The notes: a model not told the origin generated them from the sequence alone. A DNA stretch of 64,000 nt from a virus (IMGVR_UViG_3300043104_000334), one strand, 5' to 3'. Positions 18,791 through 52,963 are shown, counted from the stretch's first letter. Program-made: numbers and translations.

Positions 18791-18798
18791 ATTATCAC

Positions 18799-19149: not shown

Positions 19150-19170
19150 ATAGTTGCCCTCATCCCTTAA

Positions 19171-20534: not shown

Positions 20535-20553
20535 TAGGGAGAAATTCTCCCTA
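20535..20553 (-). terminator. Inverted repeat overlapping the virB4-like stop codon
   Basis: TAGGGAGAA-A-TTCTCCCTA. Confidence 0.45.
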
Positions 20554-22635
20554 TGAACCGGACATAACATTTTTCTCTTTTACCGGTGTATTTACTTTAT
20601 ACTTCTTAAACTTGCCATCATCGTTCTTTTCAACCTCGACCTGAATAATAGGATAAAGATTCTTGTTCTGCATATTGTTAATAAACACAAAACAGTTCTT
20701 GTACCTGTTTGAACTTCCGGGTATCTTTATGTGGTCCTCGAGATGCTTAAGCCCAAACTGCTCAATAACAACTTTACGTGCATCAAGCGTAAGCTCACCA
20801 ACAAACAGTCCTCTTGTATTTTCAATAAGAGGCTTGGCAATTTCACTATTCTGCAATGCCTGTACTGAATTACCCAAGAGCAAGGTATCCTGATTCTGTG
20901 ACCGTCTAAGCGTATACTCCTGAACGTACATCTTCATGATTTCATCAGAAACAACCTGTGACTCTTCAAGTATTTTAAATGTACGCTTACCCTCAGCATA
21001 CTTTCTTGTTGTGAACTCACCATTAAGCTTTGACATATACAGAAACTTAAGTCGGAATAAATCCTCATCAATGTCTGAAATTGTTGCATCTCCAAGGATA
21101 CCAAAGTCAAATGCTAATGTGTCACTGTGCAGGATTTTGGCGTAATCAAACTCACGCTTAAACACATAAGACTTTGAACCTGTTGCAGACATAAACATCC
21201 TGAGTGTTCCGATAACAGTCTTATGAATGTTATACTGAGCACGCTTCTGTGGAGTAAGGTATTTCTCAAACCTATCAAACACTTCATAAGGATTCAACGA
21301 TTCCGTTGTGTTCCATGAGTTCATGTTTGTAGGTATCGCACCAATCGAGATGTACAATGTATCCAAGAATTCATCAAGCAATTCTTCAAGTTCAAGAAGC
21401 GTTTCTCTATCCCGAACACCAGATAAGATAATCATCTGTTCCTTTGAGAACTTTACTCTTGATTTGAAATAGGCTTCTGCATTATCCTGCGATGTATCTT
21501 CCTTGTGCATAACGAAACTGTTGATATACTCAGTTGACATAGGACGCAATGATACTGTATAGCCATTTGTAGCGTTGATGAAATTGGTATACTCATTACC
21601 TTTAATATCCATCATAACACAAGCAGAACCATTTTCATAAGCTGACTGTGCCATATTCATTGCGAGGACAGTCTTACCAACACCTGATGGCGCTACACAA
21701 TACATATTACGTGCAACAGTTATCTCACTAAAGTCAATATAGTAAGGCGTACCATTAAGCACATTCTGTCCGACATAATATCCTGTCTTATCGTTGTATG
21801 AGCCGCAGTTGGGAACAATCTGTGACAAAATGACATTTGTTGTCATAACAGGTGTTGTACCCTTGAGGTCATAGTTCTTTCCACCAAACATTGAAATGTA
21901 CTCAAGGTCACTACGAATAGAACCATGTGCTGGCATATAGATACATCCCATGGAACCAAGCATATCGAAGATAATCTTCTCTGCGTTGTTAAGGGTTTGA
22001 ATATCTTTAGCCCGAACAATAAGGTACATTCGAGTGTTCTTCAGTTGTTTGCCAGACTCAGCAACTTTTACTGTATATAGACACCTCGCTGACCTTTCAC
22101 GCATTCTCTTTGATGTAAGGTCAGAATCAAGGTTATTTTCCCACATGTTAATACGACTTTTTAAACCGGAATTATTAGGGTCATAATCATAATTACTATT
22201 CTTGAATGTTGCATCAAGTATAGCTCGATTGCCCCTATCACGAAGAGCAGAGTTAAGCACTCCTAAAAGTGTAATAGGAGTGCTTGTTCCCAACTCATAG
22301 ATTTGTATGATTGTTGACATGTACAGCTTTGTAACATACATGTTATTCGTAATAAGAATCCTGTCTCCGATGTTATCTGGAATCTTACCTCTGTCTTTCA
22401 TCGTAAGACTAACGAGATAAGAAATCCACATCTTCACCCATAAGAATCTATCGGGCTTTACTTTGCCCTCATTACGAATCTCAGCAGCTTTCCTAACTGA
22501 TTTCCGTATGTTCTTCTGAGTCTTTTCTGCGTCTACTTCGCCATACTCGTCATAGGCAACCTCAACTTTAGAAGCCTCTTCAATGTTATTACTCCTCTGC
22601 TTTGAGTCAGCCTTTAACTCATCCCTAAGCGCCAT
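20551..22635 (-). CDS. virB4: VirB4/ConE/PrgJ-like type IV secretion ATPase (start revised to MALRDE)
   Basis: About 695 aa; GYYVGQN..GTPYYID, Walker A APSGVGKT, MDIKGNEY, Walker B KILEESQ, LLGNSVQ..LIENT; AAGGAGG RBS. Confidence 0.75.
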   Translation of the reverse strand: MALRDELKADSKQRSNNIEEASKVEVAYDEYGEVDAEKTQKNIRKSVRKAAEIRNEGKVKPDRFLWVKMWISYLVSLTMKDRGKIPDNIGDRILITNNMYVTKLYMSTIIQIYELGTSTPITLLGVLNSALRDRGNRAILDATFKNSNYDYDPNNSGLKSRINMWENNLDSDLTSKRMRERSARCLYTVKVAESGKQLKNTRMYLIVRAKDIQTLNNAEKIIFDMLGSMGCIYMPAHGSIRSDLEYISMFGGKNYDLKGTTPVMTTNVILSQIVPNCGSYNDKTGYYVGQNVLNGTPYYIDFSEITVARNMYCVAPSGVGKTVLAMNMAQSAYENGSACVMMDIKGNEYTNFINATNGYTVSLRPMSTEYINSFVMHKEDTSQDNAEAYFKSRVKFSKEQMIILSGVRDRETLLELEELLDEFLDTLYISIGAIPTNMNSWNTTESLNPYEVFDRFEKYLTPQKRAQYNIHKTVIGTLRMFMSATGSKSYVFKREFDYAKILHSDTLAFDFGILGDATISDIDEDLFRLKFLYMSKLNGEFTTRKYAEGKRTFKILEESQVVSDEIMKMYVQEYTLRRSQNQDTLLLGNSVQALQNSEIAKPLIENTRGLFVGELTLDARKVVIEQFGLKHLEDHIKIPGSSNRYKNCFVFINNMQNKNLYPIIQVEVEKNDDGKFKKYKVNTPVKEKNVMSGS

Positions 22636-22727
22636 AAATATAGCCTCCTTCAAAAACAATTCTTAGCTGAATAATCCAATAGCACTGTGCTCATCTCATC
22701 AGCAAATTCGTATTCATGTTCTAAGCT

Positions 22728-23342
22728 TCATAAAGCTTCATCAAATTCTTTAATGTCTAAGTTGCCAGCCAGAATATGATTTCCGCCGACCCAAGAACTT
22801 CCATGAACTTTCACGTTTTCAGATAAACGTGCAAACTCATGTATTTGGGCGTCTTCAGAAACTTCTGCATTGTCAGAAACCTTAGCATAATCGTACACCC
22901 ATGCATAGCCGGATACCTTTGCATTACCGGATACTTTTGCATGTCCAAACACAGCAGCGCCATCTGACACGACTGCTGAACCATAGACATGTGCATCACC
23001 GTCAACCAGTGTCTTGTCTGTCACATGTGCAGAATCACTGATGTATGCACTTCCCCATACTCTTGCATCACCATCAACACATCCACCGGAAATCATAGCT
23101 TTACCACGTACTTCCGCATTACCAGCAACTATAGCATTGTCAAATACTGTTGCAGACTCGTAGACCCAGCAGTTTCCACTCTGGCTGAGATTACTTGGCG
23201 ACTCAATGTATCCGCCTATATCCCCATCCATAACGTCTTTGAAATTCTTTACCGCCTGAATCTGATAGAGCGTACGATTGCCAATTGTCAAGGTTCTGTC
23301 CTTTAATAAAACGTACTTGATATCTCCACTAATTTTACTCAT
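22728..23342 (-). CDS. Hexapeptide-repeat (LbH) protein, phage-associated family; no leader
   Basis: LYQIQAVKNF..GDIGGYIESPSNLSQSGNCWV plus repeats. Confidence 0.85.
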   Translation of the reverse strand: MSKISGDIKYVLLKDRTLTIGNRTLYQIQAVKNFKDVMDGDIGGYIESPSNLSQSGNCWVYESATVFDNAIVAGNAEVRGKAMISGGCVDGDARVWGSAYISDSAHVTDKTLVDGDAHVYGSAVVSDGAAVFGHAKVSGNAKVSGYAWVYDYAKVSDNAEVSEDAQIHEFARLSENVKVHGSSWVGGNHILAGNLDIKEFDEAL

Positions 23343-23464: not shown

Positions 23465-24457
23465 TTATTTCTTAAGTGTATTCTCGTAAAATGCCTTAGC
23501 TGCATCCTCATGCTGCTTATAACCACTGAAGCTGAAGAAATAGGATGGAATCATCTCGTATATCATTTCCTTTTGCCAAGGTGTAAGACTGCCAAAATTC
23601 TTGTCCTCGAATAGTCCATGTACAATTGTGCATACTACACAGTCGTAAGCTTTTCTATCAGGGTACTTATCGTACTTATGATACCGCTCACATATTGTCT
23701 CATACTTACACTGTTCAAAGTAAAGCTCATCGTAATCACAGGTATCACCAGGCATTTCAAGGACACAAGCACACTCAACGATATATAGATTCTTATTATG
23801 CAATCCATTAATAAGCGATGCTACGTGTGCATCCTTATTTAAGGATAACAGTCTCTTCGCACGTTCCATTCCGTCCGAAAGTGTTCTAGGTGATACCAAC
23901 TTGATAAGCTCACTTCTACCAATCAACTTGAGATAATTCATGAACGCTATATGCTCTTTAGTCACGTAATTTGATAGGTCATGCTCCGGAGCAACAATGA
24001 TATATGTTGGATCATTAACTATCTTTGTAGAACCACTGGGCGGGTACGCTGTAAAGATAAGTTCTCTTGTACCAGTCATCTCTGGACAATTGATAAGTCT
24101 TCCACCATTAATAAGCTCCACAACAGGATACTCCTCATAATTGTAAGCACCAATCGAGAAGTTTTCGTTTTTGTTAATGAACATAACCTGTGTTCCATCG
24201 ATAATGATCTTCTTAAGCTTGTTACTAGGGGACTCCGACCACCGACCATAAGACAATCCATCATTTGTCTCCGGTCCGATACAAGGCTGTCTGCTCTCTC
24301 CATATATTGTAAGTGCACCACCACCAAATATCTTAATGACTTCTGCATTACCAGTGTAAATTGGACCTACCTTCACTTGCTCTCCGAACGTATTATAAGT
24401 CATGACTTTACCGTCGATTGCACTGGCAGCACCTAAAAGTGTATTCATACTTGACAT
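23465..24457 (-). CDS. Hypothetical protein (330 aa), not LbH, carrying the array leader MSSMNTLLGAA
   Basis: GGAGG RBS; no hexapeptide repeats; N-terminus matches the leader of its neighbours. Confidence 0.8.
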   Translation of the reverse strand: MSSMNTLLGAASAIDGKVMTYNTFGEQVKVGPIYTGNAEVIKIFGGGALTIYGESRQPCIGPETNDGLSYGRWSESPSNKLKKIIIDGTQVMFINKNENFSIGAYNYEEYPVVELINGGRLINCPEMTGTRELIFTAYPPSGSTKIVNDPTYIIVAPEHDLSNYVTKEHIAFMNYLKLIGRSELIKLVSPRTLSDGMERAKRLLSLNKDAHVASLINGLHNKNLYIVECACVLEMPGDTCDYDELYFEQCKYETICERYHKYDKYPDRKAYDCVVCTIVHGLFEDKNFGSLTPWQKEMIYEMIPSYFFSFSGYKQHEDAAKAFYENTLKK

Positions 24458-24490
24458 AGCTGTTTACCTCCATTTAACTATAATCAATCC

Positions 24491-25969
24491 TTACTGTAAT
24501 ATCCAGTCAGCAATGTTATTACTCATGATCTGCATATTCCCAAGAAATACTGTGCTACCACCTTGGTCTGCATTCCCGTATATCTGAGCATTTTCGTATA
24601 CATTAGTTTCGCCGTGTACTTTAGCGTTACCATAAACCTTAGCACCACCATCAATGACAGCATTATCGTAAACCTCAGCGCTACCAAATACTTCTGCGTT
24701 ACCACTTATTTTAGCACTGCCATGAATTTTAGCAACACCACGGACTACAGCATCATCAGAAATCTCAGCGTTATCGAAAATATTAGCATTGTCAAAAATC
24801 CTAGCATTTCCACAAATTACGGCCTCACCTGTAACATTAGCTTTCCAAGACACTTCTGCATTATCAGTTATAACACATTCCCCACCAATATATGCTTCAC
24901 CAAATATTTTAGCTTCACCACTAATGCAAACCGCTCCACCAATGCTAGCCTTTTCATAGACCTTAGCATTGTTACACACATCACCATTGTAGACGCTAGC
25001 ATCATCATAAATCTTGGCATTATCATGTACTAATGAATCACCACTTATTTTAGCATTATTGTATATTATAGCATTGTCATATACCGCAGCATTGCCTTCA
25101 ACAATAGCACGGCCATAAACCTTAGCCTTATTATATATCTTAGCTGACCGTTTTACTACAGTTTTGCCAAAGACTTGAGCATCACCATACACCTCTGCTT
25201 GATCATAGACATGAGCATTATCAAAGACTTTAGCATTATCGTGAATATAAGCTTCATCAAATACTCTTGCGTCTCCAAAAACGCATGCATTGCCATCCAC
25301 CCAACAACTCCCCTCATGAGAAAGATTTTCCTCATTCTCTATCCATCCACCATGTCTTCCTTCTACAACCGCTAGTTTATTATCCCACGTCCTCCAGACG
25401 TTTTTTAATGCTCTTATTTCATGTAAGATATGACCATCTACCTCTTTAATTGCACCAGTGAATTCATATTTCTTAGTTACTTCACCTCTTTTGAATGGAG
25501 TATCGTATACACTGTCTGTACCACACAGTAACAGTTTATCTACCCGAGCTCTACCATAAACTTGAGCTTGATCACAAACTTGAGCGCCATCATAGACTTT
25601 AGCATCATCATAGACTTTAGCCGAACCAAACACCCGTGCATTACCCCGGACTTGAGCATCACCATAAACTTGAGCATCATCTGATACTTGAGCGCTACCA
25701 GAAACCTTAGCATTACCATACACCATAGCATCATCAAATACCCAGCAAGTGCCTTCTTGAGCAAGATTGCCCTCGTGTTCTACCCAACCACCCATATCAC
25801 CAATCTTAACTTCTCTGCCATTACAATTAAAATCCTTTAAAGATTTTATTCTGCTGCATATACGTTCAAGTGTCACACTCTTATAATCAGATAATTCGTA
25901 TTTCTTATTTACATCCTTATTAGTATCAACTTTACCTGCTGCCCTTAAGAGCATATTCATATCAGCCAT
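24491..25969 (-). CDS. Two-unit hexapeptide-repeat protein with leader (start revised to MADMNMLLRAA)
   Basis: Two head domains plus two repeat tracts; GGAGG RBS. Confidence 0.85.
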   Translation of the reverse strand: MADMNMLLRAAGKVDTNKDVNKKYELSDYKSVTLERICSRIKSLKDFNCNGREVKIGDMGGWVEHEGNLAQEGTCWVFDDAMVYGNAKVSGSAQVSDDAQVYGDAQVRGNARVFGSAKVYDDAKVYDGAQVCDQAQVYGRARVDKLLLCGTDSVYDTPFKRGEVTKKYEFTGAIKEVDGHILHEIRALKNVWRTWDNKLAVVEGRHGGWIENEENLSHEGSCWVDGNACVFGDARVFDEAYIHDNAKVFDNAHVYDQAEVYGDAQVFGKTVVKRSAKIYNKAKVYGRAIVEGNAAVYDNAIIYNNAKISGDSLVHDNAKIYDDASVYNGDVCNNAKVYEKASIGGAVCISGEAKIFGEAYIGGECVITDNAEVSWKANVTGEAVICGNARIFDNANIFDNAEISDDAVVRGVAKIHGSAKISGNAEVFGSAEVYDNAVIDGGAKVYGNAKVHGETNVYENAQIYGNADQGGSTVFLGNMQIMSNNIADWILQ

Positions 25970-25973
25970 AAGT

Positions 25974-26699
25974 TTACCTCCATTTATCATTTACATATTC
26001 ACAAATATCAGTGTCACCATGAATACATTCAGGTTCATTAATTTTAACATTACCATGAACTCTAGCATTACCGCACACTAGTACCTGATTACCTATATCT
26101 GCGTTGTCATAGACCTGAGCCTTGTCACATACAGTACCAGTTACTATAGCATTGTTATAAATTTTAGCATCATCATGTACCTTAGCCATACCACGGACTT
26201 CAGTGCCACCATAGATTTTAACCCTGCCGCTAACTACTGCTGTTCCATGAACCTCAGCATTATCATAGATTTTGGCTTCCCCAAAAATCTTAGTAGAGTC
26301 ATAAACCCGCGCAGAATTAAAGACTTGAGCATTACCGAAGACTCTAGCGTCATGACAAACTTGAGCATTATCATATATTTGAGCTTCATCAAATACCTCA
26401 GCATGTTCACTAATTTCAGCACCATCATAAACTCTAGCTTTACCCCAAACTTTAGCATTATCGAATACCCAACAATTCCCTTCCTGAGAAAGATTAGTTT
26501 CACTCTCAACAAATCCACCTAATTCACCGATTTTAATTTCTGAGTCCATACCCCATTTAATACTCTTTAAAGCCTTTATCCTATGAAGAGTATGACCAAA
26601 CATTTCGCATGTTTTATCTGTAAGTTCATATTTCTTATCTGATTCCTTATTAGTATCAACCTTTCCAGCTGCTCTCAAGAGTTCGCTTATATCATTCAT
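25974..26699 (-). CDS. Hexapeptide-repeat protein with leader (start revised to MNDISELLRAA)
   Basis: Head domain plus repeats. Confidence 0.85.
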   Translation of the reverse strand: MNDISELLRAAGKVDTNKESDKKYELTDKTCEMFGHTLHRIKALKSIKWGMDSEIKIGELGGFVESETNLSQEGNCWVFDNAKVWGKARVYDGAEISEHAEVFDEAQIYDNAQVCHDARVFGNAQVFNSARVYDSTKIFGEAKIYDNAEVHGTAVVSGRVKIYGGTEVRGMAKVHDDAKIYNNAIVTGTVCDKAQVYDNADIGNQVLVCGNARVHGNVKINEPECIHGDTDICEYVNDKWR

Positions 26700-26731
26700 A
26701 ATTTTCTCCATCCTACTTCATAGATTTATTG

Positions 26732-26770
26732 CTGTTTTGGGGGGTTGGATATTGCACCCAACCCCAACAG
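26732..26770 (-). terminator. GC-rich hairpin inside the array
   Basis: CTGTT..GGGGTTGG / CCAACCCC AACAG inverted repeat just after the stop of 26781..27638. Confidence 0.55.
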
Positions 26771-26780
26771 GTTTACTTAA

Positions 26781-27638
26781 TTAACAAAGTTCATCTGACG
26801 CCATGATATGCATATCACCAGTTACAGAAGTTTTACCAGCAACATCTGAGCTACCACTGATAAATGCATGTCCATCGACATAAGCATCTCCATGTACTGT
26901 GACAAATTTATTTATAATAGTATTACCCGTCACAATAGCTTTTTCATAGATACATGCACCTCCTGAAACCTTTGCATTACATCTCACTTGAGCAGCATCA
27001 TGTACACGTGCATCTCCGCATACTAATGCATTGTCAGCAATAATTGCTGCACCATAGACCTCAGCATTATCTTTAACTGTTGCATGGTTGCAAAGAAAGG
27101 CTTTACCATATACCCGCGCGCTACCATCAACACTTGCATTGTCATTCATTTGGGCATCTTCAAATATAGCCGTTTCGCCACTGACAATGCAATCATTATC
27201 AATAATAGCATTGTCATAAATCTGTGCATGACCTCTTACAATTACATGACCATCCACAGAAGCATCGCCATAAATCTTGGCTGCACCACATATAACTGCA
27301 TTGCCGTCGACCTTTGCATTGTCATAAACCCATGCATCATCCATGACAAGTGCATCACCAGCAATCAACGCGTCTCCAAATACGAAAGCTTTACCTGTCA
27401 CCCAGCACGTTCCGTACTGTGGCAAGTTCTCTTCACTTTCAATAAATCCGCCAAGGTCTCCCGGATGCACATCTTTCCAGTGTGTCCTGAAGTACCCAAG
27501 AGCTTTGATACGATGAAGAATTATGCCCTTATAATTGTATGTTTCGTCAGTAAGTTCATATTTCTTACCTAACCCCTTAGTAGTATCAATCTTCCCAGCT
27601 GCATCCAACAGTGTATTCATATTAACCGTATTATTCAT
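26781..27638 (-). CDS. Hexapeptide-repeat protein with leader (MNTLLDAAGKID)
   Basis: Head domain plus repeats. Confidence 0.85.
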   Translation of the reverse strand: MNNTVNMNTLLDAAGKIDTTKGLGKKYELTDETYNYKGIILHRIKALGYFRTHWKDVHPGDLGGFIESEENLPQYGTCWVTGKAFVFGDALIAGDALVMDDAWVYDNAKVDGNAVICGAAKIYGDASVDGHVIVRGHAQIYDNAIIDNDCIVSGETAIFEDAQMNDNASVDGSARVYGKAFLCNHATVKDNAEVYGAAIIADNALVCGDARVHDAAQVRCNAKVSGGACIYEKAIVTGNTIINKFVTVHGDAYVDGHAFISGSSDVAGKTSVTGDMHIMASDELC

Positions 27639-27677
27639 ATCAAATATACTCCTTATCTCGATTTTTATTTTTAACTG

Positions 27678-28334
27678 TTACCTTTTACTAAACTGTAAGA
27701 ATTTTTCATACTCCGACCTTTTCTTAGACTCAGCTATGTATGTTATATTCTCATACACCATGTTGTCATCGTAATCATTAGTATGCTCCATATCCATATT
27801 GACACCAAGACAACCAATGCCTCTCAGTATTGAATGACCGGTGACCTTTACGTTGCCACCAACAATGAAAGTTCCATGAATAGTAATATTACCATTCACT
27901 TCAGCATTTCCTTTTACGCAGGTACAGATCTCAAGAACTGATGAACCAAAGACTTTAGCATTCTCATTAACACATGACTGCCCACTCATCCATGTTTCAC
28001 CACCAACAACCGCATTGTTGAATAGATGACTAAGACCACACATAAAAGCATTATCTTTGAGCACTGCACTATGTGTGACAAGTGACTTTCCACACATCTT
28101 AGCATTGTTCATAACTTTAGCATGAGCAAACACTTGAGCATCCTCGTAAACTTCTGCATCATCATACACCCAGCAATTGTCTATTGTATCAAGATTATGT
28201 TCCGATTGAATATAGCCACCTAAGTCACCTTTTTTCACATCCCCAAAATCTTTTAACGCAACAATCCGATGTAGTACCAATCCGTTGGTAAGTACCTTGG
28301 TATTGTTTGTAAGTGCATATTTATCATTATTCAT
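27678..28334 (-). CDS. Hexapeptide-repeat protein, no leader, extra C-terminal tail (start revised to MNNDKY)
   Basis: LHRIVALKDFGDVKKGDLGGYIQSEHNL. Confidence 0.85.
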   Translation of the reverse strand: MNNDKYALTNNTKVLTNGLVLHRIVALKDFGDVKKGDLGGYIQSEHNLDTIDNCWVYDDAEVYEDAQVFAHAKVMNNAKMCGKSLVTHSAVLKDNAFMCGLSHLFNNAVVGGETWMSGQSCVNENAKVFGSSVLEICTCVKGNAEVNGNITIHGTFIVGGNVKVTGHSILRGIGCLGVNMDMEHTNDYDDNMVYENITYIAESKKRSEYEKFLQFSKR

Positions 28335-28347
28335 ATTACTTGACCCC

Positions 28348-28890
28348 TTATCTACCCTTAGCATGTATGGAAGCATTACCACATATACATGTTGAACTCA
28401 CTACCTCAACATTATATATGGATGCATTTCCGTATACTCTTGCATCATCATGAACCTCTGCCCCACACACTATTGCATTGCAATAAACCATAGCATTATC
28501 ATATACTTCTGCAAGACCAGATACTTCTGCAGCTCCAAATACCTTGGCATTATTATATACCTCAGAATTACCAGATATTTTAGCGTCTTCGTATACCATA
28601 GCGTCGTCACGTACACTGGCACCAAAGAAACACATAGCATTATCGAATATCCAGCAGTTACCATCCTGCGATAAATTTTCCTCACATTCAACAAACCCAC
28701 CAAGGTCTCCAGCTTTAACAAATCTATCTCCACAATTAAAGCTTTTGAGTGCCTTGATTCTATGGAATGCATACTTCTTGTTATCCCCATACTCAATGGT
28801 TTCATCAGATAATACATATTTCTTATCTGTATTCTCTTTGTCACCATACACAGTATTTGCTGCATTCACAAGTGCTTTCATATCTGTCAT
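28348..28890 (-). CDS. Hexapeptide-repeat protein with leader (start revised to MTDMKALVNAA)
   Basis: Head domain plus repeats; GAAAGGA RBS. Confidence 0.85.
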   Translation of the reverse strand: MTDMKALVNAANTVYGDKENTDKKYVLSDETIEYGDNKKYAFHRIKALKSFNCGDRFVKAGDLGGFVECEENLSQDGNCWIFDNAMCFFGASVRDDAMVYEDAKISGNSEVYNNAKVFGAAEVSGLAEVYDNAMVYCNAIVCGAEVHDDARVYGNASIYNVEVVSSTCICGNASIHAKGR

Positions 28891-28926
28891 AGTATCAATC
28901 CTTTCTACATCATACATTCAGTATAC

Positions 28927-29742
28927 TCATTCAAATATACCATTTTCAATATTGTCACTGTCACAAATAAATGCCGAGCCACGTATTTCTGACCACCCAC
29001 TTATTACTGCATCGTCACAAACTATAGCGCTTCCATGTACCCGTGCATTACCCAAAATCTTAGCATTATCGAATACTCTTGCATTCCCGTTAATTTTTGA
29101 GTTATTACATATCTGGGCATTCCCGCATACAAAAGCATGGTCACTGACTTCAACATTATCACGGACTTGCGCATGGTCATAAACACATGCACCGCCTGTA
29201 ACCCTAGCATGTCCATAAACTGTGGCATTGCCGAATATAATAGCATCATGCATAATGGTAGCATAGTCATAAACTCTGGCATTGTCAAATATCCTAACGT
29301 TGTCATATATCTCAGCACTACCACAAACAAAAGCGTCATCATATACTCTAACATTATTGTATAATGTAGCATCTTCATACACCTTTGCATTACCATAGAC
29401 TCTGACAGAAGAATCAAGGTAAGCATTGTCAAGCACTCGTGCATTGTCATAAACGTATGCAAAGTCTCCAATATGTGCATCACCGTACACTTTGGCATTG
29501 CCATATATGCATGCTCCCTTATATGCCCAACAACTGCCATCCTGTGATAGGTTACTCTCAGACTCAAGCCATCCACCTAAATCTCCGGCTTTTATATCAC
29601 CATATCTAGTACTGAATGAACGTAAAGCTTGTATACGATGAAGTACATGACCATTTACTTCTCTAACCTCATCTGTAAGCTTGTACTTATCTTTAGGTTC
29701 ACACATGCTAGCAGCTCTCAATATCTTATTTATATTAGTCAT
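28927..29742 (-). CDS. Hexapeptide-repeat protein with leader (MTNINKILRAA)
   Basis: Head domain plus repeats. Confidence 0.85.
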   Translation of the reverse strand: MTNINKILRAASMCEPKDKYKLTDEVREVNGHVLHRIQALRSFSTRYGDIKAGDLGGWLESESNLSQDGSCWAYKGACIYGNAKVYGDAHIGDFAYVYDNARVLDNAYLDSSVRVYGNAKVYEDATLYNNVRVYDDAFVCGSAEIYDNVRIFDNARVYDYATIMHDAIIFGNATVYGHARVTGGACVYDHAQVRDNVEVSDHAFVCGNAQICNNSKINGNARVFDNAKILGNARVHGSAIVCDDAVISGWSEIRGSAFICDSDNIENGIFE

Positions 29743-29815
29743 AATTCACCTCACCTAATACTCTAACGATACCACAAACTATAGGAACATAGCTAAATCA
29801 GCATTTGAACACACT

Positions 29816-30451
29816 TTAGTATTGACATATTCTTGTACTGCCAAAGACCTGAGCAGAATCACCAACCTTAGCATTACCATATACGCTGGCACTAGCGCCA
29901 ACCTTAGCGTTACCATACACTCTAGCATTATTAGAAATCTCAGCATTATTACTTACACTAGCATTGCCATATACTCTAGCATCATCGAAGACTCTGGTAT
30001 GGCCAGAGACCTTGGCATTACCAGATACCTTAGCATGACCAGATACCTTAGCACTGCCGAATACTTTGGCATGGCACGAGACTTGAGCATGACTGGTCAC
30101 TATAGCATCACAGCTAACCCTAGCATTATCAAAGACTCTAGCCTCGTTATCAACCTTAGCATTATCACAGACTCTAGCCTCATCAAAAACCTTAGCGTCA
30201 TCAAATACCCAGGCGGTACACAACTGAGCGAGATTAGTCTCGCTCTCTATCCAACCACCCAGGTCACCAGCCTTAACCTCTCTATCTTGACATGGAAAGT
30301 CCATTAGAGCTTTTACTCTATGAAGAGTATGACCATCCATCTCAATAGTTTCATCAGTGAGTTCATACTTCTTCTTATCTGTTTCCTCAGTAGTATTAAC
30401 CTTTTCAGCTGCTTTTCCAGCTGCTTTTAATAGTGTATTTACATTAGACAT
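29816..30451 (-). CDS. Hexapeptide-repeat protein with leader (MSNVNTLLKAA)
   Basis: Head domain plus repeats. Confidence 0.85.
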   Translation of the reverse strand: MSNVNTLLKAAGKAAEKVNTTEETDKKKYELTDETIEMDGHTLHRVKALMDFPCQDREVKAGDLGGWIESETNLAQLCTAWVFDDAKVFDEARVCDNAKVDNEARVFDNARVSCDAIVTSHAQVSCHAKVFGSAKVSGHAKVSGNAKVSGHTRVFDDARVYGNASVSNNAEISNNARVYGNAKVGASASVYGNAKVGDSAQVFGSTRICQY

Positions 30452-30476
30452 AATTTCTTACCTCCATTTATTATAT

Positions 30477-31325
30477 TCAACTAGAGACTCTGGCATTTCC
30501 ACAGATTACAGCATCACCATGGATGTGGGCTTTATCACACACTATAGTATTACCAGCGATTTTAACATTACCATGCACGAGAGCATTATTACAGACCACA
30601 GCCTGATCATAGACCTGAGCACTGTCATAGACTTGAACCATGCCGGAAACTATTGTTTTACCATAGACTTGAGCATCACCAAGAATACAAGCTTTGTCAG
30701 ATACTCTTGCATAATCATAAACCTGTGCATTACCGTAAACCTGAACATTGTCAGAGACTTTAGCACTACCATAGACCTTAGCATTACCATAAATCCGAAC
30801 ATTATCAGAAACTTTAGCATCACCATAGACTTTAGCGCTATCACCAATCAAAACGTTATCATAGACTTTAACAGAACCATAGACTACAGCACGATCAAAG
30901 ACCTTAGCAAAACAATAGATTTCTCCACCATAAACTCGAGCTTCACCAAAAACTTTAACATTACCATAGACTCTAGCATCACCATGGACTTTAGCATCAC
31001 CGTAAACTTTGGTATTGCCATAAATCATAGCTTCATCGAATACTTCTGCATTATCATCAATTTTGGCATTACCATAAACTTGAGCATTGTCAAAAACCCA
31101 ACAATTACCTTCATGAGACAGATTATCTTCATTCTCAATAAATCCGCCTAGGTCTCCAGCTTTGACTCCTCTGCCTTGACAATTAAAATCTTTTAAAGAT
31201 TTTATTCTGTAGAGTGTGTTACCATCAATTTCTTTAGTCTCGTTAGTGAATTCATACTTTTTATCCGATTCCTCTTTAGGGGCAACCCTTTCAGCTGCCC
31301 CTAAAAGTGTGTTGATATCTGCCAT
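30477..31325 (-). CDS. Hexapeptide-repeat protein with leader (MADINTLLGAA)
   Basis: Head domain plus repeats. Confidence 0.85.
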   Translation of the reverse strand: MADINTLLGAAERVAPKEESDKKYEFTNETKEIDGNTLYRIKSLKDFNCQGRGVKAGDLGGFIENEDNLSHEGNCWVFDNAQVYGNAKIDDNAEVFDEAMIYGNTKVYGDAKVHGDARVYGNVKVFGEARVYGGEIYCFAKVFDRAVVYGSVKVYDNVLIGDSAKVYGDAKVSDNVRIYGNAKVYGSAKVSDNVQVYGNAQVYDYARVSDKACILGDAQVYGKTIVSGMVQVYDSAQVYDQAVVCNNALVHGNVKIAGNTIVCDKAHIHGDAVICGNARVSS

Positions 31326-31361
31326 AATATTTTATCTCCATATTTCTCAAATATTAACATA

Positions 31362-33116
31362 TTAAAAGACTTCAGTATACCCATAAACTTTGGCATGACC
31401 ACCGACCGTGGCTTTGCCATAAACTTTAGCACTACCATAGACTATAGCATTTTTATATACCTGAGCATTGCCATAGACTTGAGCATAGTTAGAGATATTT
31501 GTGTCACCATAGACTTGAGCATTATCAAAGACTTTAGCATATCCACTAACAATAGCATGCTCGAAAACTTGAGCATCTTTATAAACTTCAGCATTACCAC
31601 ATATACAAGCATTGTCATAAACTGCAGCGTTATCATGTACTCGAGCTTTGCTACCGATTTTGGCATTACCAGAGACCTGAGCATGATCAGATACTTCAGC
31701 ATTATTATAAACCGAAGCATTACCATATACTTGAGCACTATCACATACTACGGTATTATCATATACCTCAGACTTACCATAAACTGTAGCGTATCCTCCC
31801 ACCATAGCATCAAAAGCTATGCTGGCATCGTCATAGACCCTAGCACTACCACTAATAGCAGCATTATCATGTACACCAGCATTACCAAAAATCTTGGCTT
31901 CGTCTATTACACAAGCACTACAAGTGACCGAAGCATTCCCGCTGACCGAAGCATTATCACATACTTTAGCATTGTCAAATATCCAGCAAGTGTCGTTGTG
32001 AGAAAGATTATCCTCGCTCTCAACAAAACCACCTAAATCACCAGCTTTGACTTCTTTACCTTGACACGTAAAGTTTTTCAGGGCTTTTATTCTGTGAAGT
32101 ATGCACTCTTCAAAGTCAATTGTTTCATCTGTTAATTCGTACTTCTTACCCTGCTCTTCAGTAGTATTAGTATGCACTCCACCATGTACTTTAGCATTAC
32201 TGTAGACTTTGGCGTTACTACAGACACTAATACTACTATCATAGACTCGAGCGTTATCATAGACCTGTGCATCACCATAGACTTGTGCTTTACCGTAGAC
32301 TTGAGCGTTATCAAAGAGCTGAGCGTTATCATACACCTCAGCATAATCACATACACTAGCCTTATTATAAATCTGAGCATTACCATACACCTGAGCCGCA
32401 TCGAATACAACAGCATAGTCATATACCTTAGCATTGCCGTATACCTTAGCATGACAACTAATATCAGCCTTGTCACAGATTTCAGCCATGTCATAGACTT
32501 CAGCATTTCCATAGACATGTGCATCGCCGTAGACCTGAGCATTGTCACTAACTTTAGCTGTATCATATATTCTAGCATTATCAGATACTATAGCATTGCC
32601 ACATACTAGTGCATTATCATAGATTTTAGCGGCGTCATAAACTTCGGCCTTATCACATACCCAAGCATCATCATAAATCTGAGCATTATCATAAACTTCA
32701 GCATCATCGTAGACTTGAGCATTGCCATAGACTTGAGCATTACCACATACCTGAGCATCATCATATACTTCAGCCTCGTCATACACCAGTGAATCACCAT
32801 AGACCTGGGCATCTCCATATAGGCCAGCATTGTTACTTACCTTAGCATTACCGTATACCTTAGCATCATCAAATATCCAACAAGTGCCTTTTTGATCAAG
32901 ATTAGTTTCACTTTCTACCCATCCGCCCAAACTACCGGCTTTGACCTCTCTCTCCTGACACTTAAATTCTTTTAATGCTCTTATTCTGTGAAGTGTATGA
33001 CCCTCTGCCTCAATTGTTTCATCTGTAAGTTCATACTTCTTCTCATCCTTATCCGTTACTTGTTTGGTAGGGACAGCCTTTCCAGCTGCTCCCAGTAACA
33101 TATCAAGATTACTCAT
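31362..33116 (-). CDS. Two-unit hexapeptide-repeat protein with leader (MSNLDMLLGAA)
   Basis: Two head domains plus two repeat tracts. Confidence 0.85.
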   Translation of the reverse strand: MSNLDMLLGAAGKAVPTKQVTDKDEKKYELTDETIEAEGHTLHRIRALKEFKCQEREVKAGSLGGWVESETNLDQKGTCWIFDDAKVYGNAKVSNNAGLYGDAQVYGDSLVYDEAEVYDDAQVCGNAQVYGNAQVYDDAEVYDNAQIYDDAWVCDKAEVYDAAKIYDNALVCGNAIVSDNARIYDTAKVSDNAQVYGDAHVYGNAEVYDMAEICDKADISCHAKVYGNAKVYDYAVVFDAAQVYGNAQIYNKASVCDYAEVYDNAQLFDNAQVYGKAQVYGDAQVYDNARVYDSSISVCSNAKVYSNAKVHGGVHTNTTEEQGKKYELTDETIDFEECILHRIKALKNFTCQGKEVKAGDLGGFVESEDNLSHNDTCWIFDNAKVCDNASVSGNASVTCSACVIDEAKIFGNAGVHDNAAISGSARVYDDASIAFDAMVGGYATVYGKSEVYDNTVVCDSAQVYGNASVYNNAEVSDHAQVSGNAKIGSKARVHDNAAVYDNACICGNAEVYKDAQVFEHAIVSGYAKVFDNAQVYGDTNISNYAQVYGNAQVYKNAIVYGSAKVYGKATVGGHAKVYGYTEVF

Positions 33117-33147
33117 AATTACTACCTCTCTTTAAATTATGTTTTAT

Positions 33148-35079
33148 TTACTCGTAGACTTCAGTATCACCATAGATTTCAGTATTACAAACTCTAGCAT
33201 TACCATGGACTTTAGCTTTGCCATAAACCTTTGCATTCTCGAAAACCGTGGCCCTACCATAAATTTGAGCATCACCACATACTAATACATTTTCACAAAC
33301 TTTAGCATGCTCATAAACGCGTGCATTGTAGCATACTTTAGCATCGTTGCATACTATAGCATTACCATATACCTGAGCGTAATGATATACCTGAGCATCA
33401 TTATATATTTTAGCATAGTCATAGATTTTAGCATAGTCATAGACTTTTGCACTACCATAGACTTCTGCATGGTCATATACTGTAGTCTTGTCATCTAGTG
33501 CAGCACTACCATAAACTTTAGCACTACCATAAACCTCAACGTCTCCACGCACTTCAGCATTACCATAAACTTGAGCAGTATCCAGAACTTGAGCATCACC
33601 ATATACCTTTGCATCACCATACACTTCGGCACCATTATACACTCGAGCAGTACCGTAGATTTCCGCACAACCATAAACACTGGCGTAGCAATCTACTCTA
33701 GCCTCACCAAAGACCTCAGCATTATCAAATACTTGTGCTTTATCAAATACCCAGCAAGTATCTTTGTGAGAAAGATTCTTATCTTCCTCTACAAAACCGC
33801 CTAAGTCACCAATTTTAACATCTCTGCCTTGACAATCAAAGTCCTTTAAAGATTTTATTCTGTGAAGAGTGTGACCATCTATCATGATTATCTCATCAGT
33901 AAATTCATACTTCTTACCGACTATTTCTGTGTTAGCATCTACCGCTCTTAATGTCTCAAGTTCACGACTAGTACTAATCTCCTCATCGAAGACTAGTAAA
34001 TCACCACAAACGTGAGTATGATAGTTAATCAAGGAACGGCCACAGACTTTAGCATTACCACTGACTTGAGCATCACTCAATAGTAAAGCCTTACCAAAGA
34101 CCATACCGTAGCCACTTACTTGGGCATCATCCCTGATTTCGGCCTTGTCATAAACATGGGCACGGTCAAAGACCTTAGCACACCCATGAATATTAGCATT
34201 TTTATATACATGAGCAGTACCATAAACTTGAGCGTCGTCATAAACTTGAGCATCCCCACTAATCATGCTAAAGTCATAGACTTTAGCCATGCCATAAACT
34301 TGAGCATTATCATAAACCTGAGCATTACCGTAAACCTGAGCTTTATTAAAGATATTAGCGGTGCCGTACACTCTAGCCATAGCGTAAAGTCTGGATATAC
34401 CATGGATAATAGCGTCAGCAAAAACTGCTGCTTCATCATAGACTGAAGCATTGTCGTAAACTTTAGCGCTACCGAAAATACTAGCCTCCCCATAGATTCG
34501 TGCATCATCATATACTTGAGCATTTTCAAATATATGCGCATCACCATAAACTTGAGCATCATCTGATACTTGAGCGCTACCAGAAACCTTAGCATTACCA
34601 TACACTTTAGCGCCCATATAAACTTTTGCTTTACCCCAGATATTTGCACTCTCGTAGATTTCGGCCCAATCACAAACCGCAGCATTGTCATGAACAGTAG
34701 CTTTATCAAATACTTTAACTGACCCGCCTACTTTAGCCCTGTCGAAGACTTGAGCATTATCAGAAACTCTAGCGTCATCATACACTTTAGCATCGCCGAA
34801 GACTTGTGCTTCATCAAATACCCAGCAAGCATCTTCTTGTGATAGGTTACTCTCACTTTCAACCCAACCACCTAAGTCACCAACTCTTACATCTCTACCC
34901 TGACAAGTAAAATTCTTTAGAGATTTTATTCTATGGACAATATGGCTACCTGCTATGAGAACGACACGGTTATCTACTCTTGTTGTCTCGTCCGTTAATT
35001 CATATTTTTTCTCTACTTCCTTATTGCTAGTGTCAGAACATCTAAATGCTGCCCCTAGCAGTTCATCTAAACTACTCAT
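33148..35079 (-). CDS. Two-unit hexapeptide-repeat protein with leader (MSSLDELLGAA)
   Basis: Two head domains plus two repeat tracts; first gene of the array. Confidence 0.85.
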   Translation of the reverse strand: MSSLDELLGAAFRCSDTSNKEVEKKYELTDETTRVDNRVVLIAGSHIVHRIKSLKNFTCQGRDVRVGDLGGWVESESNLSQEDACWVFDEAQVFGDAKVYDDARVSDNAQVFDRAKVGGSVKVFDKATVHDNAAVCDWAEIYESANIWGKAKVYMGAKVYGNAKVSGSAQVSDDAQVYGDAHIFENAQVYDDARIYGEASIFGSAKVYDNASVYDEAAVFADAIIHGISRLYAMARVYGTANIFNKAQVYGNAQVYDNAQVYGMAKVYDFSMISGDAQVYDDAQVYGTAHVYKNANIHGCAKVFDRAHVYDKAEIRDDAQVSGYGMVFGKALLLSDAQVSGNAKVCGRSLINYHTHVCGDLLVFDEEISTSRELETLRAVDANTEIVGKKYEFTDEIIMIDGHTLHRIKSLKDFDCQGRDVKIGDLGGFVEEDKNLSHKDTCWVFDKAQVFDNAEVFGEARVDCYASVYGCAEIYGTARVYNGAEVYGDAKVYGDAQVLDTAQVYGNAEVRGDVEVYGSAKVYGSAALDDKTTVYDHAEVYGSAKVYDYAKIYDYAKIYNDAQVYHYAQVYGNAIVCNDAKVCYNARVYEHAKVCENVLVCGDAQIYGRATVFENAKVYGKAKVHGNARVCNTEIYGDTEVYE

Positions 35080-35378: not shown

Positions 35379-36503
35379 TCATTTTCTTTCAAGTAACGCA
35401 ATAATGTTCTTTACAATACTCATAGAAGAATACTCACTTATTCTCGCAGATGTATCAAGCTTTTCAAAATCTTTAATGTACTTAATAAACTGCGTTGTAT
35501 TCTCATAAGAAATGATTCTTCCAAGCGGAATATCCGCGGGTGCATCTTTTAAATCGGATACTGTGTACATAACTTCTACGTTTGGTCCAACAACATGAGG
35601 CACTGAGTATCCACCTCTGTCAAGAATTATCAGAATAGAGATATTAGACGAATTCTTTAAGACATCCTGCATAATGTTAGGCTGCATACCAAGCATAAGA
35701 ATATCACCTTGTATTACGTCACGCTCGATAAGATTGTGATGCGGAACAAGGTTGGGATAAAGCGGAATCTTACCATCTGCATAATACCCCTCAATAACAA
35801 GTATTCTTGTAGGCATCGCGTAAAGAGTCTTCATAATCTCTTTCAGATAGTACACAAGTGTATCTGTATACTGAACTCTTGAAATCTCCTTTATGTAAAG
35901 AATCTTATCGTAAGAATTCTTGTCAACCTGAAACAGTTTATTCTTATCAACACCTGCATTATACTGATAATTGATACGGGATATAAGTGCATGAAACTTT
36001 GACTGATAGGAAAGCTTATTTGCACTCTCCAGCTGGATTGTGTAGTCCTTATCATCAATCTCCGCTTGCATACCCTCTACAATAGACTGAAGTCGCGACA
36101 CCTGATTTGAGTAAGCAAGCATCTGCTTAAAGTAATCATTGTTCCTATCGGTGAGATACTTGAGTGTATCCATGAATTCCTTTTCATGTGCACCAAGCAG
36201 CATTATGATTTCACTAACATCCCGACACTCAGCAATCTTCTGAACCATTTTGTCCTGAGTAAGTACCTCATCCTCTAAATCAAGCTCGATTACAAGATTA
36301 TAGTTAATCCTCCGGACATTTTCAATGTACTTCATAAGACCAGTAGGCGTGAAGAACTCATGCGCGAAATCCTGCCGAATAACAACTTTATTAGAGGATA
36401 AATTATCTACAGCAATTTTGTCCAACTCAGACTTGGTATGAATAAATTTATATCCATCAACCTTGTCTTTCGTTTCCTCTACTAATGATGCTAAATACAT
36501 CAT
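35379..36503 (-). CDS. Hypothetical cytoplasmic protein with central coiled coil
   Basis: 374-aa ORF overlapping the upstream gene; heptad stretch QMLAYSNQVSRLQSIVEGMQAEI. Confidence 0.75.
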   Translation of the reverse strand: MMYLASLVEETKDKVDGYKFIHTKSELDKIAVDNLSSNKVVIRQDFAHEFFTPTGLMKYIENVRRINYNLVIELDLEDEVLTQDKMVQKIAECRDVSEIIMLLGAHEKEFMDTLKYLTDRNNDYFKQMLAYSNQVSRLQSIVEGMQAEIDDKDYTIQLESANKLSYQSKFHALISRINYQYNAGVDKNKLFQVDKNSYDKILYIKEISRVQYTDTLVYYLKEIMKTLYAMPTRILVIEGYYADGKIPLYPNLVPHHNLIERDVIQGDILMLGMQPNIMQDVLKNSSNISILIILDRGGYSVPHVVGPNVEVMYTVSDLKDAPADIPLGRIISYENTTQFIKYIKDFEKLDTSARISEYSSMSIVKNIIALLERK

Positions 36504-37683
36504 AGACGATTTCCTCCCCTCTCAAGTTAATTCCATTTGCTTCAACGACTTCCGCAATAAGGTTACTCTTATCAAGAACGACCCGCACGATATCAGTCAT
36601 CTCAGTTGATGTAATGTTACATTCATTCTTCTTATTCATACGCATACCAACCAAGATTACCTTTGTTGGGTCAACATCATAAAGGAGTGAGTTGCAGCAT
36701 TCAAGAACATCCGGTACTGTATCAGCACACACAATACTATAGTATGAACCATAGGGAGTCTGCGTAAAATCACACTCCTTTATGAAGTAATCAACATAGC
36801 CGAGTAAGTTGCTGCTGAGAATGTCGAATACAAAATCATAGTTAAATATAATTCTGTTCTTGCATCCAATAACAATAAGCCGGGCTGAGCTTGCTTTAAT
36901 ATCCTGCACGATTTTTGTAGGGTTAACCATGAACTCCTCAAGGTCAATAAACTCATAATCAACTGATGACTTAAGCACCATATCAGTCAACCGGTGATAT
37001 TGAATGTCACTCTCAACAATAAGCGTTTTTCCTGTCAATGCAAGATACTGTGCCTCAATGAATGTAAAGAGCGTACGCTCAACTGACTGCTTCCCAACAA
37101 CATAGTATGTGCTAGACAAAATGTCTACGCTAGGAATTTGAATTTCCGGCTCTGCCATTTGTGGTATAGCAGACAGCTGTTCTTCATCTGTTTCATAATC
37201 ATTCTCATCAGTCTCGTACTTCTTAATATTTTGTGCAACTGCATATTCAGAAGCACGCATACGATAAGTGATTACTTCAGTCTCCGACTCATCAGCAATA
37301 CGTGCTGCTCCTGATACAATATCAGAAATAAATCTTGACGATAAATCTCCCTGATAGAATGTGATGGTTGTAATACCATTATCTTCAAGGAATGAACTTA
37401 CGGCATCACTTGACGTTGTCTCACTAATGAGATAAATACAACTTCCAGTAAGCTTCAAAAATGGCGCTGAAAGCAAATCCAGAAGTCTCGCCATATTTGT
37501 ACTTGTAAAGGGAAGTTCCTTTTCTGAGATAACGATAGAACCAAGTACAATAGGTGTGGTGTTAATATACTCCTCGAACTTTATGAAGTCGGGAAATATA
37601 CTTATATCATATACCGGAGTGACACTCTTTATTGAGTCATCAATGTTACCGGCAACAATAAACATTCTTTCCTTAGAAATCAT
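36457..37683 (-). CDS. MinD/ParA/CpaE-like protein with a degenerate P-loop
   Basis: YYVVGKQSVERTLFTFIEAQYLALTGKTLIVESD mirrors the ParA/MinD layout xxVxGKGGVGKT..A..LA..GKxVLxxDxD; N-terminal receiver-like alpha/beta domain and acidic linker. Confidence 0.5.
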   Translation of the reverse strand: MISKERMFIVAGNIDDSIKSVTPVYDISIFPDFIKFEEYINTTPIVLGSIVISEKELPFTSTNMARLLDLLSAPFLKLTGSCIYLISETTSSDAVSSFLEDNGITTITFYQGDLSSRFISDIVSGAARIADESETEVITYRMRASEYAVAQNIKKYETDENDYETDEEQLSAIPQMAEPEIQIPSVDILSSTYYVVGKQSVERTLFTFIEAQYLALTGKTLIVESDIQYHRLTDMVLKSSVDYEFIDLEEFMVNPTKIVQDIKASSARLIVIGCKNRIIFNYDFVFDILSSNLLGYVDYFIKECDFTQTPYGSYYSIVCADTVPDVLECCNSLLYDVDPTKVILVGMRMNKKNECNITSTEMTDIVRVVLDKSNLIAEVVEANGINLRGEEIVYDVFSIISRGNERQG

Positions 37684-38591
37684 GATTGTCTCCTCTCCTC
37701 AAGACTTGATGTTTCCTCAGCAGGTACAAGCTCCTTTGGAACGTTATCATCATACCAGAGTACCTTGGAAGCATAATACTCATCGTTATCATACTTCTTG
37801 ATAAGCATATTCTTAAGGTCGGCAAATCCACAGATATCTCTGTTGAATAGTTCAATAACGTCATCATAATCACAAACTTTTATTTCATTAAATAAAAGAG
37901 CAATTTCTGACGATGTTAACTCACCCATATGAGCGATAAGCTTTTTCCAAGCATACTTGGCAGACGTTACCAAGAACGTTACTCTGTATAATCCAGTATG
38001 CTCACGAGACCATTCATCCTGATATGCATAGAACCCGATTCGTTCCTGTATTACTTCATTGTCTTTATACCGTTTAAGGTTTGGCAGAGTATCTTCACAT
38101 AACAGTTCATCTACCGTATTGTGTAACATCATATCCCACTGCCAACCACCATTGTCTAATTCGTTCATAAAATTTTCCATATCAACGGAAAGTTTATCTT
38201 CCGTAAGATACTCTCTTAAGTACCCAGAAATCAAGAGACCTACTCTACCATTATCAAATTCAATAAGACCATTCTCATGAACATGATTAACATGTATGAG
38301 TTCATCTGCCGATTTATACTCATCATTTCTTTGCTGCTCATAGAACTGCATTTTTACTTTTTCCTTACCAAGAATGATGAGAGCCATTCTCCCCGTAAAA
38401 AGAAGATCAAATATACAAACCCACCAGAACTTAATAGGCGTACCCTGCAATAAGAATAACCATATAAGTAATGGTAAAGCAGCACAGGCAAGAGTAAGCA
38501 CAATAGGTAATACTCTACCCTCATACTCACCAAATACGCTATCTATATTCAATAGCGTATTTATGTTTTCTTTTCCTTTAAACCTCTTCAT
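37680..38591 (-). CDS. Two-TM protein with cytoplasmic domain, possibly a PrgI/VirB3-like T4SS accessory (start revised to MKRFKG)
   Basis: Two N-terminal TM helices followed by a soluble domain; context of the membrane operon. Confidence 0.45.
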   Translation of the reverse strand: MKRFKGKENINTLLNIDSVFGEYEGRVLPIVLTLACAALPLLIWLFLLQGTPIKFWWVCIFDLLFTGRMALIILGKEKVKMQFYEQQRNDEYKSADELIHVNHVHENGLIEFDNGRVGLLISGYLREYLTEDKLSVDMENFMNELDNGGWQWDMMLHNTVDELLCEDTLPNLKRYKDNEVIQERIGFYAYQDEWSREHTGLYRVTFLVTSAKYAWKKLIAHMGELTSSEIALLFNEIKVCDYDDVIELFNRDICGFADLKNMLIKKYDNDEYYASKVLWYDDNVPKELVPAEETSSLEERRQS

Positions 38592-38645
38592 ACAATCACC
38601 TTTCATAAATGTGGGTTTGGCATTTAACCAAACCCACATAATTTC

Positions 38646-44486: not shown

Positions 44487-44501
44487 TATTCCTTACCTCT
44501 C

Positions 44502-44529
44502 TATTGTAAATATTTAAATAGTTACAATA
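44502..44529. promoter_or_regulatory. 28-bp near-perfect palindrome just upstream of the RBS of the 1946-aa gene
   Basis: TATTGTAA-A-TATTTAAATA-G-TTACAATA. Confidence 0.4.
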
Positions 44530-44531
44530 AT

Positions 44532-44559
44532 ATTGGGGATGTAAACATACATCCCCAAT
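44532..44559 (-). terminator. Hairpin after the 515-aa gene
   Basis: ATTGGGGATGTA-AACA-TACATCCCCAAT, 12-bp perfect stem. Confidence 0.7.
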
Positions 44560-44599
44560 TGTGTTGTTTGTTATTTTGTCTTTGATTTCATCGTAATTG

Positions 44600-46147: not shown

Positions 46148-46178
46148 TCTTCTACCTCCATTATGTCTACACTAACCA

Positions 46179-52750: not shown

Positions 52751-52963
52751 CTACTTATCAGACTTAAGAGCATTCCTTAATCTTTTTAAGAATGAACGTT
52801 CATACCTTTTCTTTACGCAATATATAGTATACAGTCCATCTTTATACATGGACTGATTATAAATGCATACGCCACATTTGTTACAACCAAAGTAACACAT
52901 GTCAGTAGAACAGTCTATTCTTTCATCAGATTTTATATAGGTACAACTTTCCTGTTTTATCAT
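52751..52963 (-). CDS. Small Cys-rich hypothetical protein
   Basis: 70 aa with 7 Cys, co-oriented, overlapping the end of the AAA gene. Confidence 0.4.
   Translation of the reverse strand: MIKQESCTYIKSDERIDCSTDMCYFGCNKCGVCIYNQSMYKDGLYTIYCVKKRYERSFLKRLRNALKSDK

Follow-up and report, generated by a model that had tools for sequence, protein, structure and literature searches.

Terminal address peptides on unrelated cargo are known as a kind. In phage T4, the internal proteins have a short N-terminal peptide that is common to fast-evolving, non-homologous genes in hyperplastic loci. The case described here is a 12-residue N-terminal leader peptide with an LLxAA core, encoded repeatedly in a 64,000-nucleotide stretch of viral DNA (IMGVR_UViG_3300043104_000334; this whole stretch is called the window) and elsewhere in the ~193-kb circular giant element to which the window belongs. 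Its sequence, its carrier element and its presumed reader are new. The analysis covered 150 called genes over 136 kb assembled out of the ~193-kb element.

Known address peptides and the leader compared

The capsid-targeting sequence (CTS) of T4 (IPI/IPII/IPIII and Alt) is, like the leader, a ~10-residue N-terminal peptide on unrelated, polymorphic, fast-evolving proteins of one element. It is also portable between cargos, and its cargo genes lie in variable cassettes. As in T4, an N-terminal peptide of ~10 residues is common to non-homologous proteins of the present element. The two peptides, however, have no sequence likeness. The T4 peptide depends on a scaffold core and has a prohead-protease site at its end, whereas no capsid, scaffold or protease gene was recognised in the 136 of 193 kb read here, and no conserved cleavage motif, in particular no conserved Glu site, follows the leader.

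Encapsulation peptides of bacterial microcompartments (BMC) and cargo-loading peptides of encapsulins are likewise short, terminal and amphipathic, and join non-homologous cargo through a poorly conserved flexible linker. They differ in context, as no BMC shell or encapsulin family was seen among the genes read; the leader helix is also shorter than the ~18-residue BMC peptides, and encapsulin peptides are mostly C-terminal. The MIX/FIX markers of the type VI secretion system (T6SS) and the LXG markers of the type VII system (T7SS) share with the leader an N-terminal place on diverse, fast-evolving effectors beside apparatus genes, and a cassette-like exchange of cargo. These markers fold into domains of 100-200 residues and go with known T6SS or T7SS cores, whereas the leader has only 12 residues and adjoins a divergent VirB4-like block.

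Double-glycine leaders (C39 peptidase-ABC exporters) resemble it in being short and N-terminal, with no hydrophobic core, a conserved hydrophobic pair and small residues at the end. Unlike them, the leader has no GG/GA at a fixed distance, and its hydrophobic residues are not spaced as the -4/-7/-12 rule requires. The genes read include no recognised ABC exporter; the only C39-like domain, a C39_2 match at 13531-14460 on a membrane-anchored hydrolase cassette, lies below the Pfam cut-off (21 against 24 bits). Finally, the YdcK-type solenoids of temperate phages (phrog_5070, phrog_7964) are of the same family as the body of the main cargo of the leader, but begin at the head domain (MTKKYEL...), without leader and tether.

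The leader on a tandem solenoid array

On the minus strand at 22.7-35.1 kb lie twelve tandem genes, eleven of which encode YdcK-type hexapeptide beta-solenoids (lengths in amino acids, aa):

33148..35079, minus strand, two-unit YdcK-type beta-solenoid, 643 aa, leader MSSLDELLGAA at the N-terminus only
31362..33116, minus strand, two-unit solenoid, 584 aa, leader MSNLDMLLGAAGK
30477..31325, minus strand, solenoid, 282 aa, leader MADINTLLGAAER
29816..30451, minus strand, solenoid, 211 aa, leader MSNVNTLLKAAGK
28927..29742, minus strand, solenoid, 271 aa, leader MTNINKILRAAS
28348..28890, minus strand, solenoid, 180 aa counted from the start preceded by a ribosome-binding site (RBS), leader MTDMKALVNAAN
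27678..28334, minus strand, leaderless solenoid paralog, start MNNDKYAL
26781..27620, minus strand, solenoid, leader MNTLLDAAGK
25974..26699, minus strand, solenoid, leader MNDISELLRAAGK
24491..25969, minus strand, two-unit solenoid, 492 aa, leader MADMNMLLRAAGK
22728..23342, minus strand, leaderless solenoid paralog

The nine leaders quoted in a preliminary description of this DNA are all present, each at an RBS-preceded minus-strand ATG (35079, 33116, 31325, 30451, 29742, 28890, 27620, 26699 and 25969). Behind a GGAGG-type RBS, the nine paralogs open as M-x(1-4)-[ND]-x-L-L-x-A-A-[GSN]-K, which gives the leader consensus [ND]-x-L-L-x-A-A-[GSN]-K; a polar linker, longer in some paralogs than in others, then leads to the head motif KKYELTDE. 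The same description had set apart two paralogs as leaderless, and both (22728-23342 and 27678-28334) indeed open directly at the head domain.

The frequency of the motif was assessed across the 150 genes. Its core, [LIMVF][LIVMF]x[AS][AS], has a frequency of 0.00175 per internal position, and 20 of the 150 genes have it within their first 16 residues, against ~3 expected. A chance origin of the shared leader is excluded.

The copies differ in their codons: the Leu positions use CTG/CTA/TTA/CTT/CTC/TTG, the Ala positions GCA/GCT/GCC/GCG, and DNA identity between paralog leader regions is only 62-79%. Because the differences fall at synonymous sites, selection evidently acts on the peptide. A translation-ramp or mRNA-motif function was rejected, since the peptide is kept while synonymous positions vary.

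An earlier statement that the leader is no Sec, Tat or lipoprotein signal holds: it has no hydrophobic h-region, only the L-L and A-A pairs around one polar residue, followed by the charged linker, and no RR and no lipobox occur in any leader sequence. A simple scan for hydrophobic stretches found no transmembrane (TM) segment in any tagged protein of the window.

Position also matters. Two head-plus-solenoid units are fused in four genes (24491-25969, 31362-33116, 33148-35079 and L022:789-2126), and the second units of all four keep linker and head and have lost the leader (best score on the matrix described in the next section, <=1.3 bits). The tag works only at the extreme N-terminus. An internal leader remnant suspected by eye in the 643-aa protein gave no score on that matrix.

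The solenoid body itself is a known fold family. PF18836 is above the Pfam cut-off in 10 of the 11 array solenoids, while phrog_5070 and phrog_7964 (function unknown) match 11 of 11; PF18836 scores are 40-115 bits in ten paralogs (cut-off 30) and 28.7 bits in the 189-aa protein, with no match in the 234-aa protein. Phage homologs of the body number 91 records, mostly from temperate phages of Streptococcus, Bacteroides, Liberibacter and Bacillus. Of the 25 records listed, 24 have matches that start at query residues 20-42; the exception, phiST1, matches from residue 5, yet its protein, in the early region adjoining an ERF recombinase, starts MTKKYEL. The literature on YdcK yielded nothing useful. 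The idea that the solenoids are DNA mimics was dropped, their isoelectric points (4.5-6.1) being near the element median of 5.3. The 18-nt codon periodicity of the array also yields long spurious open reading frames on the opposite strand.

A structural or assembly role is one account of the leader: its helix would cap or oligomerise the solenoids, or dock tagged proteins on one intracellular scaffold. Left-handed beta-helix proteins are often trimeric, and the leader is predicted helical; in the AlphaFold2 (AF2) model of the 211-aa paralog (predicted local distance difference test, pLDDT, 80), residues 3-18 form a helix and residues 19-28 a linker of low confidence, which leads to a small beta head and then to a regular solenoid with strands every 6 residues. 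The account is nevertheless very improbable: the disordered linker parts the leader from the fold, the leader is missing in phage homologs, two paralogs and internal units, and it also stands on Fic and other non-solenoid folds. A Foldseek search of the solenoid model against the PDB returned nothing at E <= 0.001 and listed YdcK (2pig) only weakly.

The leader on unrelated proteins

The leader had been described on one unrelated protein and, probably, on a second. It is not confined to the solenoid paralogs, as the motif is verified on several non-solenoid families; across the circle junction it stands on five more proteins, two of them solenoids. Scores are those of a position-specific scoring matrix (PSSM) trained only on solenoid leaders and applied at the N-terminus:

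23465..24457 (start 24457), minus strand, 330-aa protein, leader MSSMNTLLGAAS, N-terminus MSSMNTLLGAASAID, conserved core from ~residue 30; 24.0 bits
6314..6652, minus strand, 112-aa protein, leader MVETLVSAAG; 10.6 bits
4641..5018, minus strand, 125-aa protein, leader MSEELLKAAQ; 4.6 bits
across the circle junction, 442-aa protein, leader MEETVTELLKAAETAG; 11.9 bits
across the circle junction, 259-aa Fic protein, leader MSGELFNAANVIS; 2.3 bits (PF02661, 68.2 bits against a cut-off of 24; SoFic and PDC-S04 models also match)
across the circle junction, 246-aa protein, leader MNMNQLLSAATTGG; 12.9 bits
across the circle junction, two further tagged solenoids

The null distribution, 34,710 internal positions of non-solenoid proteins, has its maximum at 15.7 bits. 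The 330-aa protein exceeds it clearly and, like the nine paralogs, opens as M-x(1-4)-[ND]-x-L-L-x-A-A. The 125-aa protein at 4641-5018, taken earlier as a probable carrier, is a weak match alone; it gains weight because a 42%-identical homolog (P0130) keeps the motif as MNIMIKAAS.

When the first 20 residues are removed, the cargo families have no mutual similarity (all E > 0.09). The proteins behind the tag are YdcK-type solenoids, a Fic enzyme and members of five or more families whose function is unknown. It is present on genes 80-100 kb away from the array, and ~60 genes around the RNA polymerase are without it.

The 330-aa protein has no Pfam, PHROG, NCBIfam or PADLOC family and no match in phages by tblastn. 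Its AF2 model is poor (pLDDT 57; strands prevail in the N-terminal half and helices in the C-terminal half, and the leader has low confidence) and unfit for a fold search; the Atlas model is also poor, with beta-helix-like hints only (TM-score < 0.5).

Conservation in related elements

Fic proteins give the widest comparison. Among 120 homologs, ordinary bacterial members begin at the conserved YEDV..WW, without leader, while the seven closest relatives (61-69% identity) are longer by a leader of 15 residues. A variant extension, of the type LDDSLSKAISSMS, is found on several Fic proteins at greater distance, some of them on 186-209-kb contigs; this variant may be a lineage-specific version of the same tag. 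Many of the Fic homologs in the set P0016-P0126 have such an extension, for example M-S-T-L-D-D-S-L-S-K-A-I-S-S-M-S. The nearest named Fic homologs are from Anaerovorax and Faecalimonas. Since neither the phage solenoid homologs nor the ordinary bacterial Fic proteins have the leader, it is evidently an add-on.

Retention is seen in other cargo as well. The 246-aa protein has orthologs at 46-49% identity whose N-termini read MNDLLRAAT and MNELLRAAS. In two syntenic relatives (L024/L028, contigs of 188.6 and 188.8 kb), the leader stands on Fic (18.6 bits), on a 254-aa ortholog (20.6 bits) and on a new 172-aa non-solenoid protein in the slot held here by two solenoids. In all, orthologs of three non-solenoid families keep the leader in related elements of ~186-189 kb at 42-69% identity.

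The related locus L001 shows how cargo turns over. Between the conserved 374-aa gene and the VirB4-like gene it has an AbiEii gene, a 144-aa gene, a tagged solenoid (23.5 bits), the 330-aa ortholog and a 309-aa solenoid. The AbiEii toxin-like gene and its 144-aa partner (L001:7714-8978) fill part of the solenoid-array slot. The 408-aa and 374-aa proteins of L001 are 84-85% identical to those of the window, against 49% for the 330-aa cargo, and the leader is mostly retained; cargo thus evolves fast, with a tag that is usually but not always kept. The tag persists at the locus while the cargo behind it is swapped.

The carrier element and its gene block

Proteins of the window are found on JGI contigs of 193,287 and 193,223 bp. 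Because these break at different places, the element is read as a ~193-kb circle. A longer version, of 200,315 bp, has the window as its final 64 kb, with an extra integrative element from ~56.9 kb on. This integrative element (56920-64000) holds a 329-aa gene and FtsK-like, Viral_Rep (HUH), helix-turn-helix, tyrosine integrase and ParE/Phd genes, and is missing from the 193-kb copies; together with the adjacent 478-aa gene it recurs at 98% identity in another contig beside chromosomal-type genes.

Nearly all genes of the element lie on one strand. In the 136 kb they include a T2SSE ATPase, rpoB- and rpoC-like genes that have diverged very far, and genes like those of DnaB, primase, UvrD and the clamp loader, and there are giant proteins of 1800, 1946 and 2455 aa, membrane and surface proteins among them. 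The RpoB-like protein has only ~25% identity to any rpoB in the phage collection.

Three features frame the array or stand as candidate partners of the leader:

35379..51581, minus strand, block upstream of the array: 1800-aa, 515-aa, 1946-aa multi-TM, 319-aa membrane, 408-aa and 374-aa proteins
20551..22659, minus strand, VirB4-like P-loop ATPase directly downstream of the array, candidate machine
52926..53810, minus strand, classical-clade AAA ATPase, IetA-like, candidate reader

The array sits between the membrane block and the VirB4-like ATPase in this element and in L001; conservation of the block was measured for the 408/374-aa pair alone (the L001 values above). A complex prediction of leader residues 1-45 with the 408-aa and 374-aa neighbours scored 0.00, uninformative either way. 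Next to the 1946-aa giant protein, the membrane protein at 37680-38639 resembles the leader over residues 8-21 (ENINTLLNIDSVFG), before its TM segment (5 bits on the PSSM).

The ATPase at 20551-22659 scores 29.9 bits on the Pfam TraG P-loop model (cut-off 25.8), 42 bits on the NCBIfam model VirB4_plasma (590) and 34.6 on CD1110 (325), with a Walker A motif at residue 314 of the 694-aa form. Downstream of it, 11720-20462 holds repeated membrane-anchored cell-wall hydrolase cassettes: two Phage_lysozyme2, one M15 and the C39-like one below cut-off.

Some features recall jumbo phages, namely the single coding strand, an own RNA polymerase and replisome parts. Along these lines, the leader would be a T4-like capsid or particle targeting signal that loads cargo into a virion-like particle to be injected with the DNA. 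The likeness to the T4 internal proteins in architecture (a short N-terminal peptide on polymorphic, non-homologous genes) speaks for it, as does a solenoid family that is otherwise a phage family. Yet precomputed Pfam hits (~150 genes, 136 kb) include no capsid, portal, terminase, prohead protease or tail family, and among 20 unexplained proteins scanned against PHROG none matched a capsid, portal or terminase family, the sole matches being weak ones under lysozyme-type domains. Three IMG/VR queries found no relative. With no conserved Glu cleavage site behind the leader either, particle targeting is rather unlikely.

The VirB4-like protein has no match among plasmids or species genomes. A megablast of 20 kb against phages was without a match. 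The 'Hodor' gut megaplasmids (PMC12934698) were considered and set aside as a different element: they exceed 300 kb, and their text has no mention of an RNA polymerase.

The AAA ATPase at 52926-53810 suggests another route. The leader and its tether could form an initiation site for this IetA-like protein, or a binding site for Hsp70, for timed degradation, unfolding or folding of cargo. The protein falls in the classical clade (IetA defence models, E 1e-39; PAN/Cdc48/FtsH-like), and terminal-tag unfoldases need a hydrophobic motif on such a tether (ssrA/ClpX-type recognition), which a terminal motif on a disordered 10-20-residue tether suits. N-x-L-L-x-A-A-G also resembles the DnaK model peptide NRLLLTG, as a lead only. 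On the other side, the AAA gene is 18 kb from the array, its IetA likeness points to a defence role instead, and no IetS-like protease gene adjoins it. Such handling is unlikely, if somewhat less so than particle loading, and it could precede export and thus overlap with a transfer tag.

A proposed recognition tag for transfer or export

An evenly balanced judgement is that the LLxAA leader is a portable N-terminal recognition tag for cargo of the element, probably for transfer or export. The preliminary proposal of a portable add-on common to non-homologous proteins is borne out by selection at the peptide level and by retention in non-solenoid orthologs. On the sequence evidence, the leader is an add-on that is selected as a peptide and kept in orthologs usually but not always.

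The tag would consist of a short helix (~residues 3-12) on a 10-20-residue polar disordered tether. It would front unrelated, cytoplasmically made, fast-evolving accessory proteins of the ~193-kb circular giant element, and a single partner encoded by the element would read it. The most likely purpose would be to deliver cargo to the outside of the cell, or to pass it on with the DNA to the next host. A type IV secretion system (T4SS)-like apparatus, made up of the giant membrane proteins, the VirB4-like ATPase and the membrane-anchored cell-wall hydrolases, is the candidate route, since the genes of this apparatus enclose the main cargo array. This placement, with effector-like cargo (Fic, polymorphic cassettes), favours delivery as the inferred purpose.

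Several points weigh against a transfer or export tag. The reader of the tag and its transport are presumptive. The VirB4 assignment is weak by the scores and cut-offs given above, and neither a relaxase nor a coupling protein turned up in the 136 kb read. Within this element, the leaders of Fic and the 125-aa protein are not significant alone. Two L001 proteins have lost the motif, namely the 49%-identical ortholog of the 330-aa protein (-2.7 bits) and the 309-aa solenoid beside it (-4.3 bits); the tag is therefore dispensable for some cargo.

The 330-aa gene also raises the question of a relic, that is, a solenoid gene 5' end (RBS and first codons) spread by illegitimate or homologous recombination and persisting without function. 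Its RBS and first 8 codons have 79% and 72% DNA identity to two solenoid genes (D18). Since its 5' end is DNA-homologous to solenoid 5' ends, a single recombination explains this case, and recombination appears a fair account of tag acquisition by this gene alone. The suspicion of a one-off acquisition thus partly holds for the 330-aa gene, whose L001 ortholog and more distant homologs are leaderless. Two paralogs, moreover, fare well without the leader. As a general account the relic is improbable: it leaves unexplained a peptide conserved despite synonymous change, its retention in orthologs of three other families (42-69% identity, up to 20.6 bits), its presence on genes 80-100 kb from the array and its loss from internal units after gene fusion.

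A further step is more tentative. The leader could possibly be the delivery signal of an undescribed protein-transfer pathway of new ~190-kb circular, RNA-polymerase-encoding giant elements, probably of Clostridia-class hosts, in which tagged, interchangeable effector cassettes are exported or sent on with the DNA.

Biological meaning

Short terminal address peptides that unrelated cargo have in common are seldom found, and they are of use in several ways: such a peptide marks out a cargo set, leads to machines that had gone unnoticed and can be used as a fusion tag. The present motif yields a candidate effector list of at least 7 protein families and ~18 genes, from a carrier class unmatched in the phage, plasmid, IMG/VR and species-genome collections searched. 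It makes the question of what giant elements send or protect directly testable, and it provides a handle for the receptor via co-variation across related 180-250-kb elements. If the leader is indeed the signal of a delivery pathway, its lineage-specific variants would co-evolve with that receptor.

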